Sequence record: NC_105587.1
Direction: 5' to 3' (one strand)
DNA: 64,000 nt
From: Escherichia phage EC100
Each line of letters opens with the position of its first letter. Within the stretch, counting starts at the first letter, position 1. The position numbers and the translations under genes were made by a program. Below, one piece after another: positions 3,869-39,667 of the stretch. The notes beneath the pieces are model-generated. The model was not told the DNA's origin, did not search any database, and worked only from the letters and a program-made list of their open reading frames with translations.

Positions 3869-3946
3869 TGGTGGCTCCCCGAGGATTCGAACCTACGTAC
3901 CTTCCGGTTATGAGCCGGGTGCTCATACCATATGAGCTTGAGAACC
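3869..3946 (-). tRNA. tRNA with anticodon CAU (Met or Ile2-type)
   Basis: Acceptor GGTTCTC/GGGAGCC, D-stem GCTC/GAGC, anticodon loop CTCATAA on a CCGG stem, T-loop TTCGAAT, CCA. T-stem pairs only partially. Confidence 0.5.
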
Positions 3947-4062: not shown

Positions 4063-4581
4063 TTAGAAATTTAGCTTCATAGCAAGAAAATTTTTCAAGT
4101 TTTCGGTAGACATCTCATCCACATCTACAGGAGAAACAAATCCATTTAATTTTCTAGCAAATTTTTCACCCGCAGGATCGTTGTCCCCGACAGCTACCAA
4201 TTTAAAAGGTAATAATTTCAGTTGCTTTAATAAGGCTTTTCCTGGAGAAGAACCCAACATTGCCAGGGCTGGATAACCAGCGTTATGTAACGCAACTGCC
4301 TTAAATACAGATTCAGCAATCAATACTACTTTTTCATCTCCATTGAGAGTTTCTAGTCCCCATACACACTGTGTAGTAGAATAGGTAAAATATTTAGCTT
4401 CAAAGGGGCACTTACCATGCCCTTTTGGAGCAGAAGGATTATAAGTCTGATAGCCTCTCAACATCCCAGAGAAGTCATACAACGGGACTGTTAGCCATCC
4501 TTCTGGACTTAACCAGCAATGATATTTATCTGTATCAAATCCCCTAGATAAGAGGTGCTGTGTTAGCTCATCAACATTCAT
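4063..4581 (-). CDS. Toprim-domain protein (primase-like catalytic core without zinc ribbon)
   Basis: Toprim signature VVLIAESVFKA (Glu) ... LVAVGDNDPAG (DxD); start moved to the ATG at 4581, which has a GAGAGAGGAA ribosome-binding site. Confidence 0.5.
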   Translation of the reverse strand: MNVDELTQHLLSRGFDTDKYHCWLSPEGWLTVPLYDFSGMLRGYQTYNPSAPKGHGKCPFEAKYFTYSTTQCVWGLETLNGDEKVVLIAESVFKAVALHNAGYPALAMLGSSPGKALLKQLKLLPFKLVAVGDNDPAGEKFARKLNGFVSPVDVDEMSTENLKNFLAMKLNF

Positions 4582-4756
4582 ATTTGGTTCCTCTCTCAAA
4601 TTTATAGATATATTATACAGAGAATTTAGCATTCAAGCAATCAAATTTTTTAACTTTTTAGAGGAAAATCATAGGGCACTTAAGGGTAGCAGATAAGTGG
4701 TGAGGACCAAAATTTGTGACCCCACTAAAAATCCGGGGGCAATTTTTAAAGACCCC

Positions 4757-4785
4757 TTGACATTTTCGCTGGGGTAGTGTAAAGT
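4757..4785 (+). promoter_or_regulatory. sigma70-type promoter (TTGACA, 17 bp, TAAAGT) for the plus-strand low-complexity module
   Basis: TTGACATTTTCGC -35 core shared with the element at 32904; 60 nt upstream of the GGAGG ribosome-binding site. Confidence 0.45.
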
Positions 4786-4848
4786 ATATGTTATGGATGA
4801 GTGATCAAAGAGACACACATTTTCTGTATACTAGGAGGTGTCAAAAAA

Positions 4849-5840
4849 TGACAGAAGAAGTAGCTAAGAGTCCTGAGACCGTCGCTAGCGTTGCGGCAGA
4901 ACTGCACCGTCACGAGGAATCAGATAAGAAAAAGTGGGAGAAGGTCAGAGCCTACGAAGAAAAACATCGTGAACACGATGATGAAGACGATGAAGATGAC
5001 GATGATGAACATTGTCATAAATATGGAAAACATAAAATGCAAGAACCAGTAAACGTATTTACTAATGGCTTCCCTGGCCTACTAGGTGGTTACCCAGCAA
5101 ACGTAGGTGCTTTCGGTGGTGAAGGTATGGGACTATTCGGAGCTATCCTAATCGGCGCTCTATTAACAGGCGGATTCGGTGGTTTCGGTGGATTCGGTGG
5201 ACGTGGTGTTGTTGGTGAAGGTACCGCAGTTGATGCAGTACTTCAGAACCAAGATACCGCTAGTATTCTAGCAGCTATCAACACTACTCGTACAGAAGCT
5301 AACCAGGGTACCGGAGCTGTTTTAAGCGCAGTTAACAATGGTTTTAGCCAGACATCCCAAAACCAGAGCCGTGATACTCAGTCTGTATTAACTACGATCT
5401 ATGGTACAGGTGCTAATCTGTCTAATCAGATCTGCCAGGAAACCCGCAACGTTATTCAGGGTCAGTTCGATCTTTCTCGCCAGATTGATCAATCTTTCGC
5501 AGCTAACCAGATAGCTCGTGCACAAGATAAATTTGATTCTGCACAGATAGCTTTCCAGCAGACTTTACAAACTAATAACCAGTTTGCCGCTGTTCAGGCT
5601 CAGATGTGTGCTAACCAGAACTCTCTGGAACGTCAGATCGCTGAATGTTGCTGTGAACTTCAGACTGCGATCGCTGGTGTAACTACTGCGCGTATCCAGG
5701 ATGAGTTAGATGCATGTCGCCTACGTGAAGCAATCGCTGCGGGTAGCGGTGCTAACGGTCAGGTAATTAATCAAATCGCTTTAAGTCTTGGTGCTATCAC
5801 TCAGACTCTGGCTGGTCTGCAGGCTAAACTGCCGGCTTAA
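4849..5840 (+). CDS. low-complexity protein: acidic N-terminus, Gly-zipper hydrophobic segment, Q/N/T-rich Cys-containing C-terminus
   Basis: GGAGG ribosome-binding site 9 nt upstream of the ATG at 4849; acidic run DDEDDEDDDDE, GLFGAILIGALLTGGFGGFGGFGG, roughly 200 aa Q/N/A/T-rich tail with CCC. Confidence 0.55.
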
Positions 5841-5861
5841 TATTAAGGGGAGGAGCCCATT

Positions 5862-6275
5862 ATGAGTAAATATGGTTTTGTAAATAACGGACTTAATCAA
5901 AGTATGGGCTCCCAGCAGCCCATTCCGGGTCTGGATAACCCCTACTTACAACAGTTGCAACAGCGTTTAGCAGAAGCGCAACAGATGCAGCAACAACTCC
6001 AGCAAAACCCTGGAAGTGTGAGTCCTATGCAAATGATGCAGCAAATGAGCGGGCAGTCGCAAATGCCTCAACAAATGCAGCAACAGATGCCGCAGCAAGT
6101 TCAGCAACAAACCCAACAACCGCAGGTTTCTGCGGAAGGACAGGCAGTACTAGCCCTTTTCGAAGACTTCGCAAAGACAGAGGATGGGAAACAGCTTGTA
6201 TCACTTATGGGTAAGTTTAATAGCTTCTGCCAAAGCCAAATTGCAAAAGCTCAAAATAGCGGTAATAACTCCTAA
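5862..6275 (+). CDS. glutamine-rich protein (137 aa)
   Basis: GGAGG ribosome-binding site; QQLQQRLAEAQQMQQQLQQ...QQMQQQMPQQVQQQTQQPQ; codon usage of highly expressed genes. Confidence 0.55.
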   Translation: MSKYGFVNNGLNQSMGSQQPIPGLDNPYLQQLQQRLAEAQQMQQQLQQNPGSVSPMQMMQQMSGQSQMPQQMQQQMPQQVQQQTQQPQVSAEGQAVLALFEDFAKTEDGKQLVSLMGKFNSFCQSQIAKAQNSGNNS

Positions 6276-6284
6276 GGAGGGATT

Positions 6285-6479
6285 ATGTGTTGCAGAAAAT
6301 CTGTTTCGTGCTGCCCAATGCCTGTAGCACGTTGTTGCTCTCCAGCAATGTTTACGCAAATACCGGCGTTCAATCCGTTTGCCTTTAAGCCTACTCTTAT
6401 CCTGCCCCCTAGAGTAGATTTTCAGTCAAGATTGGCCTCCCGTATGGGTGGTTGCTGTAATAAGAGTATATGGTTCTGA
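6285..6479 (+). CDS. cysteine-rich small protein with four vicinal CC pairs (64 aa)
   Basis: AGGAGG ribosome-binding site; MCCRKSVSCCPMPVARCCSP...GGCCNK; followed by an intrinsic terminator. Confidence 0.45.
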   Translation: MCCRKSVSCCPMPVARCCSPAMFTQIPAFNPFAFKPTLILPPRVDFQSRLASRMGGCCNKSIWF

Positions 6480-6495
6480 AGAACCAAACAATAAA

Positions 6496-6529
6496 GCCCC
6501 TAGTCGAAAGACTTAGGGGCTTTTCTTTT
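6496..6529 (+). terminator. intrinsic terminator ending the plus-strand low-complexity module
   Basis: GCCCCTAGTC-GAAA-GACTTAGGGGC hairpin followed by TTTTCTTTT. Confidence 0.75.
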
Positions 6530-6540
6530 ATCTTAAATAC

Positions 6541-6574
6541 AGAAAAGCCCTGCGCTCTCCAGGAAACGCAGGGC
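6541..6574 (-). terminator. intrinsic terminator after the SPFH gene
   Basis: GCCCTGCG ... CGCAGGGC hairpin with a U-tract on the minus strand; convergent with the 6496 terminator. Confidence 0.65.
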
Positions 6575-6599
6575 TTACTTCAGATGTTACATGCGGGTA

Positions 6600-7547
6600 T
6601 TATTTATTACGCATATCCATAATCATTTGGCCATCATAGCCAGTGCCAACCACAGTCTGCGGTACACCACCCTGATACTTCTGAGCACGAATCATTTCAA
6701 CTTCCAGTTGCTTCCAGCGAATCATCTCAGGAGTAATGGTACGTTGCAGTGCGGCGTTAGCTTCAGCTTCTTTCTTAGCTGCGTACAGTTTAGCATCTGC
6801 ATCACGTTCATTAGCAATAGCTTGGTTGTTGCGAGCTTCACGATCTGCTTCTGCTTGTTTAACTTTTTGCTGTGCTTCCTGTTCAACACGAGCTAATTCA
6901 GCTTTAGCAGCATTAACCTGTTCTTCACGAACTTTGGTATTCTGTACCTGTTCCATGATTACCGGTGGCAAAGTAATATCCTGAAGGAACACCTGCTTAA
7001 CTGTGTAACCATATGGGCGTGCATACTCTTCAACTTCCTGTTGAATTGCAGTTTGCAATTGAGCCTGAATTTTAGCATCAAACAAATCTTGTGCTTTAGG
7101 CACAGACTTACCAAACTCACGAATAGTAGACAATAATTTTTCAGTTACATATTTGTCTAACGCTTGATCCTGAGTACCTGCATTAATACGGTTAATCGGT
7201 GCCTTAGAACCATCAAATTGCAACATAACAGTCAAGTCAACAGTGGATTTAAACTTATCCTGACTAGGAACCTGAAGTTTATCTAATTTTACAGCAATAT
7301 CTTTTGTACTAAAAGTATCGAAAGATGCAAACGGGTTTACAAGATGGAAACCAGGTAATACTGGGTTAGGATCTACTTTACCCAGAAATGTTTGGGTTTT
7401 AACCGTACCATCAGAAACAATAGTATATGAATTAAAAGCTAGGATTAAACCTGCTAAACCAACTACAGCACCAATACCCCAACGTTTAATAGTACGAATT
7501 ACTTTCTGCTCAGAAGTCAGTTCTTTCATATTTTTAGTATTAAACAT
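6600..7547 (-). CDS. SPFH/band-7 (HflC/prohibitin-like) membrane protein
   Basis: N-terminal transmembrane helix (WGIGAVVGLAGLILAF), SPFH-like core, C-terminal Ala/Glu/Gln-rich coiled coil; ATG with AGGA ribosome-binding site. Confidence 0.65.
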   Translation of the reverse strand: MFNTKNMKELTSEQKVIRTIKRWGIGAVVGLAGLILAFNSYTIVSDGTVKTQTFLGKVDPNPVLPGFHLVNPFASFDTFSTKDIAVKLDKLQVPSQDKFKSTVDLTVMLQFDGSKAPINRINAGTQDQALDKYVTEKLLSTIREFGKSVPKAQDLFDAKIQAQLQTAIQQEVEEYARPYGYTVKQVFLQDITLPPVIMEQVQNTKVREEQVNAAKAELARVEQEAQQKVKQAEADREARNNQAIANERDADAKLYAAKKEAEANAALQRTITPEMIRWKQLEVEMIRAQKYQGGVPQTVVGTGYDGQMIMDMRNK

Positions 7548-8157: not shown

Positions 8158-8229
8158 TACCGACCGTAGGATTCGAACCTACATCTTCCACCAGTTACGG
8201 CTTGATAATACCAATTATACTAGGACGGC
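8158..8229 (-). tRNA. tRNA-like element (degenerate, possible pseudo-tRNA)
   Basis: T-arm GTAGG-TTCGAAT-CCTAC identical to the one in the 1271-1353 tRNA, acceptor stem with one mismatch, no clean anticodon stem, no CCA. Confidence 0.25.
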
Positions 8230-9015: not shown

Positions 9016-9465
9016 TTAAGTTTTAGTGACAACAGGTTTATAGAATGTATGTCCCTTAATCTTAGTTGTTTTCTTAAATTTCTTTGTCCAGTAAGGTTTA
9101 TCTTTACCACTATGGAAGTATAGTGCTCCATGTGTAGGATCTTGTGGTAAATCAACGTAGTATATCACTCTAGCTAAATTCTTAGCGGTTTGCCAAGCCT
9201 CATCAGTTTTATCAACTTTTGGTCTCTTAGATACCCAAGAGAACTGGTTAGACTGATATACTACTTTACAGTAGGAATCTGGGAATTTACCGGAGTTTAC
9301 ACGGTTTTTAGTAACATGTGCAATCGCCGTCATTCCCTTTATGCCCTCACCACGACTTTCGAAATAGATATTTTTAGCAATGCAATCTATTTCTTTTGCA
9401 TCGTGCGACGCCTGACTACTAAAGCTGAAGGTAAGGGCAGCTACTAAAAGCAAAGCTGCCTTCAT
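9016..9465 (-). CDS. secreted cell wall hydrolase, SleB/Hydrolase_2-like
   Basis: Signal peptide MKAALLLVAALTFSFSSQA; conserved block IYFESRGEGIKGMTAIAHVTKNRV...VVYQSNQFSW; start moved to ATG 9465 with AGGAG ribosome-binding site. Confidence 0.6.
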   Translation of the reverse strand: MKAALLLVAALTFSFSSQASHDAKEIDCIAKNIYFESRGEGIKGMTAIAHVTKNRVNSGKFPDSYCKVVYQSNQFSWVSKRPKVDKTDEAWQTAKNLARVIYYVDLPQDPTHGALYFHSGKDKPYWTKKFKKTTKIKGHTFYKPVVTKT

Positions 9466-9470
9466 TCTTT

Positions 9471-9788
9471 TTACTCCTGCCAATCATATTCAACACGATT
9501 GGGATTTTCTTTATACCCTAAGTCAAGCAAATCATTACGCATATTTTGCTTAGCTACTGGGTTCGAGGTTACTAGTACCACTTTCTTTGGTCTCTGCCCA
9601 AATTCTAAGAGTAAACGAAGAATTTGATAACCTTCCATACCATCTACAGCCAAGTCATTATCCATATAAACGAAGTGGCCTGTGGTATCAGTTTTATTCA
9701 GAAACTCTACAGCGGCTTCTGGGGTTCGAATGATAATGTCCATTCCGTGAAGATTACGCACATCATCAATCAAAATATGAAAAGTCAT
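9471..9788 (-). CDS. stand-alone CheY-like receiver (REC) domain protein
   Basis: Aligns by eye to CheY: ILIDD (acidic pair), YMDNDL..GMEGYQIL (phospho-acceptor Asp), VVLVTS (Thr), GYKENP (Lys); 105 aa. Confidence 0.5.
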   Translation of the reverse strand: MTFHILIDDVRNLHGMDIIIRTPEAAVEFLNKTDTTGHFVYMDNDLAVDGMEGYQILRLLLEFGQRPKKVVLVTSNPVAKQNMRNDLLDLGYKENPNRVEYDWQE

Positions 9789-37099: not shown

Positions 37100-39667
37100 T
37101 TGAAAATCGCAGTAGTTGATAAAGCTCTAAATAACACTCGTTACGATAAATATTTCCAGCTATACGGCGAGGAAGTTGATGTATTTCATATGTGTAACGA
37201 GAAGTTATCTGGTCGTTTGCTTAAAAAGCACATTACTATTGGAACACCAGAAAACCCATTTGATCCGAATGATTATGATTTTGTTATACTGGTAGGTGCC
37301 GAACCTTTTCTGTACTTTGCAGGTAAGAAAGGTATTGGTGATTATACCGGTAAACGTGTAGAGTATAATGGATATGCTAACTGGATTGCGAGTATCAGCC
37401 CAGCCCAACTACACTTTAAACCTGAAATGAAACCAGTTTTCGATGCAACAGTAGAGAATATCCACGATATTATCAATGGTCGTGAGAAGATTGCAAAAGC
37501 TGGTGATTATCGTCCTATTACTGACCCTGATGAGGCAGAAGAATATATCAAGATGGTGTATAATATGGTTATCGGACCTGTCGCATTCGACTCCGAAACC
37601 TCAGCACTATACTGTCGAGATGGTTATCTGCTCGGTGTTTCTATGTCTCACCAAGAGTATCAGGGTGTATATATCGATTCTGATTGTCTCACAGAGGTTG
37701 CAGTATATTATCTCCAGAAAATTCTGGATAGTGAAAACCACACTATTGTTTTTCACAACTTGAAGTTTGATATGCACTTTTATAAGTACCATCTGGGACT
37801 TACTTTTGATAAAGCGCATAAAGAACGCAGGCTTCATGATACCATGTTGCAACACTATGTTCTAGATGAACGTCGTGGTACTCATGGCTTGAAATCTCTA
37901 GCGATGAAGTACACCGATATGGGTGACTATGACTTCGAACTAGATAAGTTTAAAGATGATTACTGCAAAGCACATAAAATTAAGAAAGAAGATTTCAGTT
38001 ATGATCTGATTCCTTTTGATATTATGTGGCCATATGCTGCAAAAGATACAGATGCTACTCTACGTCTTCATAACTTCTTCTTACCAAAAATTGAGAAGAA
38101 TGAAAAACTTTGCAGTCTGTATTATGATGTTCTAATGCCTGGTTGTGTATTTCTCCAGCGTGTTGAGGATCGTGGTGTACCTATTTCTATTGATCGTTTA
38201 AAAGAAGCTCAGTACCAATTAACCCATAATCTGAATAAAGCTCGTGAAAAGCTGTATACTTATCCAGAAGTAGTTCAGCTAGAGAAAGATCAGAACGAGG
38301 CATTTAACCCTAACTCTGTTAAGCAGCTACGTGTTCTTCTGTTTGACTATGTTGGCTTAACTCCAACAGGTAAACTGACGGATACTGGAGCAGACTCTAC
38401 AGATGCAGAAGCTCTGAACGAATTGTCTACGCAGCATCCAATTGCTAAGACTCTACTAGAGATTCGTAAGCTGACTAAGCTGATCTCTACTTATGTTGAG
38501 AAAATTCTTCTGAGCATTGATGCTGATGGTTGCATTCGTACTGGCTTCCACGAACACATGACTACTTCTGGTCGTCTGAGTTCTTCTGGTAAACTGAACC
38601 TGCAACAGTTACCTCGTGATGAATCTATTATCAAGGGTTGTGTAGTAGCTCCTCCTGGGTATCGTGTAATTGCATGGGACTTAACAACTGCGGAAGTTTA
38701 TTATGCTGCTGTTCTATCTGGTGATAGAAATATGCAACAAGTATTTATCAACATGAGAAATGAACCAGATAAATACCCCGACTTCCACTCTAACATCGCA
38801 CACATGGTATTTAAGCTCCAATGCGAGCCTCGTGATGTTAAAAAGTTATTCCCAGCTCTGCGTCAAGCAGCTAAAGCAATCACCTTTGGTATTCTGTATG
38901 GTTCTGGCCCAGCTAAAGTAGCTCATTCTGTTAACGAAGCTCTTCTGGAACAGGCTGCTAAGACAGGCGAACCGTTTGTAGAATGTACGGTTGCAGATGC
39001 GAAGGACTATATCGAAACTTACTTCGGTCAGTTCCCGCAGCTTAAGCGTTGGATTGATAAGTGCCATGATCAGATCAAGAATCATGGGTTTATCTATAGT
39101 CACTTTGGTCGTAAGCGTCGTCTGCACAATATCCACTCCGAAGACCGTGGTGTTCAGGGTGAAGAAATTCGTTCTGGATTTAACGCAATCATTCAGTCTG
39201 CTTCCTCTGATAGCCTCCTTTTAGGTGCTGTAGATGCAGATAATGAGATCATTTCTCTTGGCCTGGAACAAGAGATGAAGATTGTTATGCTGGTTCATGA
39301 CTCCGTAGTTGCTATTGTTCGTGAAGATTTGATCGACCAATACAATGAAATCCTGATTCGTAATATCCAAAAAGACCGTGGTATTAGTATTCCTGGCTGT
39401 CCGATTGGTATTGATTCTGATTCTGAGGCTGGAGGTTCTCGTGACTATTCCTGTGGTAAGATGAAGAAGCAGCATCCATCAATCGCTTGTATTGATGATG
39501 ATGAATATACTCGTTATGTCAAAGGTGTGTTACTTGATGCAGATTTCGAGTATAAGAAACTAGCTGCAATGGATAAAGAGCATCCAGATCATAGCAAATA
39601 CAAGGATGATAAGTTTATTGCTGTATGTAAAGATTTGGATAACGTAAGAAGGATTCTCGGTGCTTGA
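37100..39667 (+). CDS. DNA polymerase, family A with 3'-5' exonuclease (T5 DNA polymerase-like)
   Basis: 855 aa; exo motif FDSETSALY, motif B RQAAKAITFGILYG, motif C LVHDS; TTG start with AGGAG ribosome-binding site. Confidence 0.95.
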   Translation: MKIAVVDKALNNTRYDKYFQLYGEEVDVFHMCNEKLSGRLLKKHITIGTPENPFDPNDYDFVILVGAEPFLYFAGKKGIGDYTGKRVEYNGYANWIASISPAQLHFKPEMKPVFDATVENIHDIINGREKIAKAGDYRPITDPDEAEEYIKMVYNMVIGPVAFDSETSALYCRDGYLLGVSMSHQEYQGVYIDSDCLTEVAVYYLQKILDSENHTIVFHNLKFDMHFYKYHLGLTFDKAHKERRLHDTMLQHYVLDERRGTHGLKSLAMKYTDMGDYDFELDKFKDDYCKAHKIKKEDFSYDLIPFDIMWPYAAKDTDATLRLHNFFLPKIEKNEKLCSLYYDVLMPGCVFLQRVEDRGVPISIDRLKEAQYQLTHNLNKAREKLYTYPEVVQLEKDQNEAFNPNSVKQLRVLLFDYVGLTPTGKLTDTGADSTDAEALNELSTQHPIAKTLLEIRKLTKLISTYVEKILLSIDADGCIRTGFHEHMTTSGRLSSSGKLNLQQLPRDESIIKGCVVAPPGYRVIAWDLTTAEVYYAAVLSGDRNMQQVFINMRNEPDKYPDFHSNIAHMVFKLQCEPRDVKKLFPALRQAAKAITFGILYGSGPAKVAHSVNEALLEQAAKTGEPFVECTVADAKDYIETYFGQFPQLKRWIDKCHDQIKNHGFIYSHFGRKRRLHNIHSEDRGVQGEEIRSGFNAIIQSASSDSLLLGAVDADNEIISLGLEQEMKIVMLVHDSVVAIVREDLIDQYNEILIRNIQKDRGISIPGCPIGIDSDSEAGGSRDYSCGKMKKQHPSIACIDDDEYTRYVKGVLLDADFEYKKLAAMDKEHPDHSKYKDDKFIAVCKDLDNVRRILGA

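Follow-up and report, generated by a model that had tools for sequence, protein, structure and literature searches.

Embedded in the minus-strand tRNA region of Escherichia phage EC100 is a short block of three genes that are read from the plus strand. The DNA analysed, here called the window, is a stretch of 64,000 nucleotides from sequence record NC_105587.1, and the block fills positions 4757–6529 of it, with a promoter of its own, three open reading frames (ORFs) each led by a Shine-Dalgarno (SD) sequence, and a terminator. Their products are referred to as p1, p2 and p3. The genes themselves are already known: they correspond to T5.077, T5.078 and T5.079 of phage T5 (NC_005859), which lie between promoter P12 and terminator ter1 and have been annotated, as "hypothetical", since 2005. 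There is good support for regarding the trio as an autonomous, moron-like early transcription unit, running from P12 through T5.077-078-079 to ter1, within a variable tRNA and anti-defence region. A preliminary description of this DNA, made from the sequence alone, had proposed three linked plus-strand ORFs with GGAGG-type SD sequences, a TTGACA-type promoter and a terminator, set between minus-strand blocks; all of these elements are found where it placed them, and minus-strand tRNAs and genes do flank the cassette on both sides.

4757–4785, plus strand: σ70-type promoter, TTGACA-17 nt-TAAAGT (10/12 match), the promoter P12 annotated in T5 and BF23
4833–4838, plus strand: Shine-Dalgarno sequence AGGAGG of p1, 9 nt 5' of the ATG at 4848
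4848–5840, plus strand: p1, 330 aa, homolog of T5.077, beginning MTEEV at the SD-proximal ATG
5849–5853, plus strand: Shine-Dalgarno sequence GGAGG of p2, 8 nt 5' of the p2 ATG
5862–6275, plus strand: ORF of p2, 137 aa, homolog of T5.078
6276–6280, plus strand: Shine-Dalgarno sequence GGAGG of p3, 4 nt 5' of the p3 ATG
6285–6479, plus strand: ORF of p3, 64 aa, homolog of T5.079, beginning MCC
6493–6529, plus strand: intrinsic terminator, a bulged 13-bp hairpin and UUUUCUUUU, the ter1 of T5 and BF23
6545–6576, minus strand: second hairpin, terminator of the convergent SPFH gene and right boundary of the indel described below

A longer p1 frame opens at 4788, and the annotated homologs of T5 and BF23 start at the equivalent of 4848; on this comparison the p1 start is assigned to 4848, giving 330 amino acids. 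At the other end of the cassette, the hairpin at 6493–6523 with its U-run has a computed ΔG of −20.2 kcal/mol (z = −5.7), and none of 200 shuffled sequences was equally stable. The T5 annotation gives an "efficient bidirectional terminator" at this position, together with a major nick site. The second hairpin holds GCGC (6552–6555), the consensus of the 'major DNA single-chain interruption' annotated at the homologous position of T5, which would put the nick site exactly at the right edge of the variable cassette. An Rfam scan found no RNA family inside the cassette.

The third ORF is the one for which deposited annotations disagree. Most T5-like genomes annotate nothing at this place, and the RefSeq record of SSP1 calls a 33-aa ORF in the +2 frame (window 6287–6388). 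The latter is signal-peptide-like in look and was considered as an alternative to p3; it is ruled out by a stop at codon 3 in EscoHU1, GreteKellenberger and C13. The 64-aa frame is open in all ten relatives compared, where its four Cys-Cys (CC) pairs are invariant, and ORF3 of the window differs from those of T5, BF23 and LmqsSP1 by synonymous changes only. Because the CC-rich frame is thus kept open and its rival is interrupted in three genomes, comparison of the sequences identifies the 64-aa frame as the true ORF3. Its product begins MCCRKS… and is Pro-rich, and its 8 Cys form the four CC pairs that were first described. Two of the four pairs are kept in the distant trios; conservation spans the whole length of the protein, with no pattern of conserved leader and variable core, and p3 is 100% identical to its T5 ortholog where p1 is ~87% identical.

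Inheritance, loss and dispensability of the cassette

The phage is a Tequintavirus of the EC122 type. Region 4700–6600 of the window is 100% identical to the corresponding DNA of Escherichia phages EC104, EC105, EC122 and EC142, and shares 95–98% identity with about 140 other Tequintavirus and Epseptimavirus genomes. Relative to T5.077–079, the products are orthologous at ~87% (p1), ~93% (p2) and 100% (p3), and gene order, promoter and terminator are alike, so that there is no difference of substance between the two trios. In the tRNA-region record of BF23 the genes appear as 'ORF 326aa/138aa/64aa', again with P12 and ter1, and in ΦSP15 p1 is ORF76 and p2 is ORF77. A 2025 re-annotation of T5 lists the trio under "unknown function" (phrog_8119, phrog_7894 and a singleton). 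No main-text mention of T5.077–079 by name was found in the literature; data on them appear only in the supplementary tables of the paper on CRISPRi-ART.

The three genes are inherited together with great regularity. Searches of phage records with tblastn returned p1 in 221, p2 in 221 and p3 in 220, with identical host distributions. The order p1-p2-p3 is kept in L012, a divergent 114-kb T5-like metagenomic contig (p1 at 36% identity), and in the unrelated 63-kb Pseudomonas siphophages RSP/KPP23 (p1 and p2 at ~47%, p3 at ~39%), where the trio comes first in an operon divergent from that of the terminase. Homologs of p2 drawn from 5.8 billion proteins all fall in T5-type and KPP23-type lineages, and the distant ones that were traced (P0394, P0397, P0399, P0400, P0401 and P0403) come from contigs that also encode a T5-type p1. 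The proposals that the trio travels as a unit, and that its members form a functional one, are thereby borne out by strict co-inheritance as well as by the shared promoter and terminator.

Presence of the trio is patchy. The flanking SPFH gene is found at ≥90% identity in ~431 records, compared with 221 that have the trio, which implies that about half of T5-like genomes are without it. In DT57C and SelmaRatti, T5.076 is joined straight to T5.080, with no trio between them. The DT57C sequence (contig L026, 2258-2470) retains the last ~45 bp of ORF3 (…GTTGCTGTAATAAGAGTATATGGTTCTAAAGAACCAAACAAT) fused to the left flank, a deletion scar from which the first terminator hairpin has gone. Because half of the relatives lack the trio and DT57C retains this scar, the comparison identifies the cassette as ancestral to T5-like phages and repeatedly lost.

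Published variants of T5 and BF23 bear on this as well. T5Mos, which carries Δ30661–38625, is viable; mapped from its coordinates, the deletion would end inside T5.077 (T5 38064–39029) and take out P12. A BF23 genome reported in 2023 is without ORF071–075 of AY587007, and these should correspond to T5.076–T5.080, that is, Rad, the trio and the SPFH gene, since cross-references in DT57C give T5.073 as ORF069 and T5.081 as ORF076. Translational knock-down by CRISPRi-ART scored T5.077, T5.078 and T5.079 all as "Not Fit", meaning that there was no fitness cost. From these three observations, lytic growth on laboratory E. coli does not require the trio. Its own promoter and terminator, a coding strand opposite to that of the flanks, patchy presence among syntenic relatives and dispensability are together what is looked for in a moron or accessory element. 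As a cassette that can be removed or replaced, it also offers a safe site for engineering.

The neighbourhood is one of known anti-defence function. T5.076, termed ORF75 in ΦSP15, is Rad, an anti-retron protein; in the window it lies at 4063–4632 on the minus strand and adjoins the cassette. Rad is a TOPRIM protein that many genomes annotate as 'DNA primase', and it matches both Pfam Toprim_2 and the PADLOC DRT model 'RTasDnaG-like' (E = 6e-7). To its left, a region of ~8 kb has been defined experimentally as an Anti-Defense Island (ADI), which T5n and SP15m, both spontaneous deletion mutants, have lost. In the model phage T5 the tRNA and anti-defence region has been much studied (Rad; tRNA-Tyr against retrons; tRNA-Lys against PARIS), and of the blocks that touch the ADI directly the trio is the largest without an explanation. 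Added here to what was on record are the frame of ORF3, the 1:1:1 co-inheritance that extends to KPP23-type phages, the deletion scar, the prevalence of ~50%, and the union of three PHROGs groups that is described in the next section.

Purifying selection acts on each of the three ORFs (the ratio of nonsynonymous to synonymous divergence, pN/pS, is ~0.2 for p1), and it falls on the ordered segments that flank the Q-rich stretch. The codon usage of highly expressed genes, attributed to the whole trio in the preliminary description, holds for p1, whose frequency of optimal codons (Fop) of 0.674 is above that of 50 of the 53 ORFs in the window, and fails for p2 and p3, which are average at 0.46. 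Together with the strong SD sequence, the Fop value suggests that p1 is strongly expressed. Synonymous divergence (pS) is uneven within the cassette when the same genome pairs are compared (the window against relatives L002-L010): it is 0.34–0.47 for p1, 0.02–0.18 for ORF3, and for p2 either ~0.1 or ~0.5, switching with the phage compared. Such unevenness points to recombination mosaicism, to constraint at the nucleotide level, or to both. RNA folding does not account for the low pS of ORF3, the z-scores of the two strands (−1.6 and −0.8) being not significant.

The p1 family and the predicted form of the complex

The composition of p1 divides the protein into three parts. Residues 1–70 are acidic and His-rich (D+E 33%, H 10%); residues 71–125 are 40% Gly and enclose the hydrophobic core GLFGAILIGALLTGGF; residues 126–330 are rich in A (16%), Q (15%), T (9%) and N (8%), for 23% Q+N, and contain a CCC triplet at 267–269. 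Apart from small differences in numbers, the acidic run, Gly-rich hydrophobic segment and Q/N/T-rich tail with CCC had been accurately described. In terms of predicted structure, the layout is a conserved N-terminal helix, the acidic/His-rich run, a Gly-rich transmembrane (TM) segment at ~93–118 with GGFGGFGGFGG repeats beside it, and a helix over residues 137–327. Two AlphaFold2 runs, on alignments of 17 and 82 sequences, gave models of low confidence (predicted local distance difference test, pLDDT, 53 and 62; predicted TM-score, pTM, ≤0.25) that consist of an extended helix with no globular fold. In both, the N-terminal helix (12–41) is confident (pLDDT ~95), residues 46–135, covering the acidic and Gly-rich parts, are disordered, and 137–327 form a nearly unbroken helix. 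A helix of this kind is what would be expected of a subunit in an extended homo-oligomeric coiled coil. A Foldseek search of the p1 model against PDB and BFVD gave nothing under E = 0.4, returning vimentin-type noise only.

Two further features of the N-terminal half are recorded here as observations. In Epseptimavirus alleles of p1 (P0003, P0009-P0015), the acidic run at residues ~40-75 has grown into an extreme His/Asp/Glu tract (…HHYHHHHHEHYEEDDEDDEEEDEHEHHHGYHKY…). Within the hydrophobic segment of the window p1, residues 95-100 read GLFGAI, and the segment as a whole resembles the Gly-rich fusion peptides of viruses. The same six letters open the fusion peptide of influenza HA2, which we take to be most likely a coincidence.

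A word-based search gave 30 relatives of p1. When 1.84 billion representatives were then searched exhaustively with a profile, 420 clusters had E ≤ 1e-3 and 68 had E ≤ 1e-10. In distant relatives the acidic N-terminus is gone, and the Gly-rich hydrophobic segment, the Q/N/S/T/A-rich helical region and the CCC are kept. The triplet is found in 121 of 147 distant representatives and is near-invariant over ~240 members, within the consensus G-N-N-A-L-x-x-Q-L-A-E-CCC-E-N-R-L-A-I; family-wide, the TM segment begins near residue 39 and the CCC follows ~110 residues further on. The window p1 shows all of the marks of the family, namely the Gly-rich hydrophobic segment, a predicted helix of more than 100 aa and …Q-[LI]-A-x-C-C-C-[ED]…. 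Judged from its conserved flanks, the first Cys of the triplet occupies a core heptad position. A metallothionein-like tail with C-x-C or CC, for example CPVPxY…NPWGC…GCGCGC, closes the sequence of 86 of 244 members. The idea that p3 might be such a Cys-rich C-tail split off from p1 was rejected, as hhalign gave it a probability of 0.3%; the resemblance is a compositional analogy at most.

The family is confined to phages, on contigs of 30–114 kb, and no member has been named. Its cultured carriers include crAss-like phages, Bacteroides phage C3_41T2LP, Edwardsiella phage eiAU, Aeromonas phiWae15, Klebsiella RCIP0096 and Butyrivibrio virus Ceridwen. In crAss-like phages the members (H85-H101, and L016, which is cr4_1 4758-5735, read with TAG-recoded translation) are labelled 'spike protein/glycoprotein' or 'outer capsid protein/viral fiber', labels that are probably artefacts of the coiled coil. 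Outside the T5-like phages, the p1-like gene usually marks the point where early genes meet those for tail or lysis, and an endolysin or holin gene is often 1–5 kb away. When the neighbours of p1-like genes in these phages were clustered by BLAST, no partner common to them emerged, the clusters tying sub-groups only; p2 and p3 do not extend beyond the T5-type and KPP23-type lineages. Individual neighbours include a His-rich protein encoded directly 3' of the p1-like gene in eiAU, a Q-rich 128-aa protein encoded upstream of it in L013, and, a few genes 5' of it in the unrelated metagenomic phages L013, L019, L020 and L022, small helix-turn-helix proteins of 60–90 aa (GerE/LuxR- or σ-region-4-like).

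That no family could be recognised for the three proteins, as first reported, stands for curated libraries and has to be amended for p1 and p2. The p1 sequence matches phrog_8119 (E = 1.5e-205) and p2 matches phrog_7894 (E = 6e-78); p3 is a singleton in PHROGs. Distant relatives of p1 fall into phrog_16490 and phrog_9288, and although all four groups are listed under 'unknown function', the profile search makes the three p1 groups (8119, 16490 and 9288) one large unnamed family. Searches of Pfam, NCBIfam, PADLOC and PDB sequences with p1, p2, p3 and their alignments gave sub-threshold compositional matches only (RIFIN, tektin, vimentin, granulin), and among 81 family members scanned there was no Pfam domain and no match above gathering score to Gly-zipper_Omp, YMGG or 2TM. 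Clear homology to a characterised family, which would have overturned the preliminary account, was thus found for none of the three in Pfam, NCBIfam, PDB, PADLOC or Foldseek searches. The link of T5.077 to a family of ~420 clusters that includes those of crAss-like phages provides a genetically tractable entry to it, with T5 itself, naturally deleted variants of it and CRISPRi tools to hand.

Membrane anchoring of p1, proposed at the outset, is very probable from its sequence, since a single hydrophobic Gly-zipper-like segment is kept throughout the family. The positive-inside rule gives no orientation, because K and R are nearly absent from both flanks of the TM segment across the family. For p1 of the T5 type, a topology with the N-terminus inside is suggested by the highly charged N-terminal domain of 90 residues. 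For p2, the composition first given as about 30% glutamine is 27% Q (34% Q+N): Q-rich, as stated, at a slightly lower figure. Two stretches of p2 are conserved, one at the N-terminus, short and helix-like, and the other a C-terminal domain of ~45 aa (…LFEDFAKTEDGKQLVSLMGKFNSFCQS…); the Q-rich middle is the least conserved part, homologs vary from 107 to 146 aa, and p2 of L012, with only 107 aa, has a much shorter Q-rich part. A signal peptide or lipobox was sought in p3 and not found (maximum Kyte-Doolittle hydropathy over 15 residues, KD15, 1.05). As neither p2 nor p3 has an export signal, both are predicted to be cytoplasmic.

A possible role at the host envelope

From these elements a mechanism can be proposed. 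In it, p1 would be an abundant, single-pass Gly-zipper protein of the cytoplasmic membrane, with a C-terminal homo-oligomeric coiled-coil stalk of ~190 residues that bears the invariant triple Cys, and p2 and p3 would be lineage-specific cytoplasmic partners that most likely dock on p1. Soon after infection begins, the complex would build up in the inner membrane, and it would stand outside replication, virion assembly and the core lysis machinery. It might act as a conditionally beneficial envelope device that excludes competing phages or blunts a membrane-associated host defence. Metal binding or thiol chemistry may lock or regulate its assembly. The hints lie in Cys and His richness: p1 has its CCC and His/acid run, p3 its CC pairs, and a third of the family the metallothionein-like tails. 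That the trio is such an envelope-level host-interaction module, serving superinfection exclusion or countering a membrane-associated defence, is given a rough probability of 0.35, which makes it a tentative reading.

Known systems offer partial parallels. Membrane proteins that effect superinfection exclusion include T4 Imm and Sp, HK97 gp15 and P22 SieA. These are likewise early and non-essential, with an N-terminal membrane anchor and a soluble domain; in contrast to the trio, they show no likeness to p1 in sequence or fold, p1 is far larger and belongs to a family spread across very different hosts, and p1 has two predicted cytoplasmic partners. With phage morons and the genes of the ADI in T5 and SP15 (Rad/T5.076, ORF72+73, tRNA-Tyr), the trio shares its own promoter and terminator, patchiness, dispensability and adjacency, but it lies on the opposite strand and is predicted to form a membrane complex, whereas the ADI products are a nuclease or tRNA.

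Several points weigh against a role in exclusion or anti-defence. No such phenotype is on record for the trio, and the connection to defence comes from adjacency to Rad and the ADI only. Apart from F6–F8, fragments of the ADI gave no rescue from the retrons tested, in a paper that is silent on whether the trio was intact in any fragment, and the trio has no match in PADLOC. Physical interaction of p1, p2 and p3 is deduced solely from their co-inheritance, and p1-like genes outside the T5-like phages have other neighbours than p2 and p3, near lysis or tail genes. The p1 family spans phages of Proteobacteria, Bacteroides and Firmicutes, a wider range than is typical of exclusion or anti-defence proteins, and this suggests that its role is more generic. 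The low confidence of the p1 models and the lack of an orientation from the residues flanking the TM segment detract further from this reading.

A more generic role can be given a specific form, in which p1 would represent a hitherto unrecognised class of very widespread phage membrane proteins (in T5-like, KPP23-like, crAss-like, eiAU-like and Firmicute phages) that combine a Gly-zipper anchor with a coiled-coil stalk of ~25 nm, switched by a ring of triple Cys through metal or through thiol/disulfide exchange and fed by Cys/His-rich modules, which in T5-like phages would be p3 and p2. Such a tool for the host membrane might be, for example, a redox- or metal-gated switch for exclusion, anti-defence or lysis control. 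This is a speculative extension, and an unlikely one at present; we know of no characterised counterpart of a triple-Cys membrane device.

Among the competing explanations, a regulator of lysis timing ranks first. Here p1 would be holin- or antiholin-like and set the moment of membrane permeabilisation, with p2 and p3 its cytoplasmic modulators, comparable to the T4 holin T, which has a single TM domain, with RI and RIII. Genes of the p1 family lie ~1–5 kb from an endolysin or holin gene in 6 of ~10 contexts outside the T5-like phages (cr4_1, L019, L020, L021, L023 and Ceridwen), p1 has one Gly-zipper TM segment and a big soluble domain, regulators of lysis timing are typically non-essential, as the trio is, and a SleB-like hydrolase with a signal peptide is encoded 2.5 kb away in the window. 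That proximity is loose, however, and only weakly above chance for genomes of 40 kb; holin, endolysin and Rz-like spanins of T5-like phages are annotated elsewhere, the promoter of the trio is of an early type, and there is no match to holin or antiholin families of Pfam or PHROGs. The trio thus lacks the marks of a holin, being dispensable and not beside the holin and endolysin genes of T5, and a part in lysis timing is judged improbable, if worth keeping in view. The same long coiled coil, with its TM segment and conserved Cys, also recalls (as predicted) the i-spanins of the Rz type, and the trio has been compared with Rz/Rz1 as a fusogen- or spanin-like envelope device, with p1 as an inner-membrane coiled coil of ~25 nm that carries a fusion-peptide-like Gly segment and a Cys knot and works in the manner of an i-spanin or a class-I fusion protein, and small, Pro-rich p3 as its partner; the crAss labels "spike glycoprotein" and "viral fiber" could be read in this way. 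Against this, the trio lies outside the lysis cassette, Rz-like spanins are already present in T5-like phages, p3 is without signal peptide or lipobox and the signal-like alternative frame is not conserved, and plaques and fitness ("Not Fit") do not depend on the trio. Butyrivibrio, the Firmicute host of Ceridwen, is monoderm, and a family member in a phage of such a host fits a spanin poorly. A spanin-like function is accordingly very improbable, and the specific notion of a "missing spanin of T5" was rejected on the grounds of the annotated Rz-like spanins, the lack of a lipoprotein signal in p3 and the member from a monoderm-host phage. Much the same low standing belongs to a virion or assembly protein, either a tail-associated fibre or a membrane-bound scaffold. 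The p1-like gene does follow tail genes in eiAU, L013, L021 and L022, and crAss members are annotated "viral fiber", but the structural role floated in the preliminary description sits badly with a cassette of the T5 early region that has a σ70 early-type promoter, is absent from half of close relatives and is dispensable, and a TM segment is unusual for virion proteins.

Other explanations start from composition. In one, the trio would be a membrane complex for metal handling or for thiol and redox sensing, in which the CCC, the His/acid tract and the paired Cys of p3 bind Zn, Cu, Ni or Fe or sense oxidation, so that during infection metal or redox state would be supplied, sequestered or sensed. 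This would suit the near-invariance of the CCC in ~240 members with its first Cys in a core position, the metallothionein-like tails of 86 of 244, the N-termini of Epseptimavirus p1, which bear HHYHHHHHEHYEEDDEDD…, the His-rich neighbour in eiAU, and the 8 Cys of p3, a 64-aa protein that lacks an export signal. The argument is compositional only, with no match to a metal-binding family; distant trios keep two of the four CC pairs, the His-rich run is lineage-specific, and a stalk outside the cytoplasm would favour disulfides, so that metal or redox function as such is rather doubtful. The prion-like or condensate-forming assembly suggested earlier, for which Q/N-rich p1 and p2 would be the nucleus at the membrane, draws on 27% Q (34% Q+N) in p2, 23% Q+N in p1 residues 126–330, and the GGFGGFGGFGG repeats by the TM segment of p1. 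The p1 tail is, however, predicted to be a helical coiled coil and not disordered, the Q tract of p2 is its variable part and shorter in L012 (107 aa), and selection acts on the neighbouring ordered segments; an assembly of this type therefore appears decidedly unlikely. Least probable of all is that p3 is a toxin or a ribosomally synthesized and post-translationally modified peptide (RiPP), p1 and p2 serving its export or immunity. A small, Cys-rich protein that is 100% conserved where p1 is at ~87% invited the suggestion, but no modifying enzyme, protease or transporter is encoded in the cassette or within ±5 kb, no RiPP family is matched, and p3 is conserved from end to end with no division into leader and core.

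Neighbouring features of the window

To the right of the cassette, the gene at 9016-9483 (minus strand), called 'endolysin' in several records, encodes a SleB-type cell-wall hydrolase (PF07486) with an N-terminal signal peptide, and differs from the lysis endolysin gene of T5; its upstream neighbour at 9471-9788 (minus strand) encodes a cREC_REC receiver-domain protein (PF20274). In L012 and in Butyrivibrio virus Ceridwen, too, a PF07486 hydrolase is encoded within a few kb of the p1-like gene. The Rfam tRNA model marks two additional tRNA-like elements that ARAGORN did not list, both on the minus strand: one at 3872-3946 (40 bits), in a position that matches tRNA-Ile2/Met(CAU) of T5, and the other at 8158-8229 (35 bits), within the region annotated in T5 as the stable RNA 'rnaX'.

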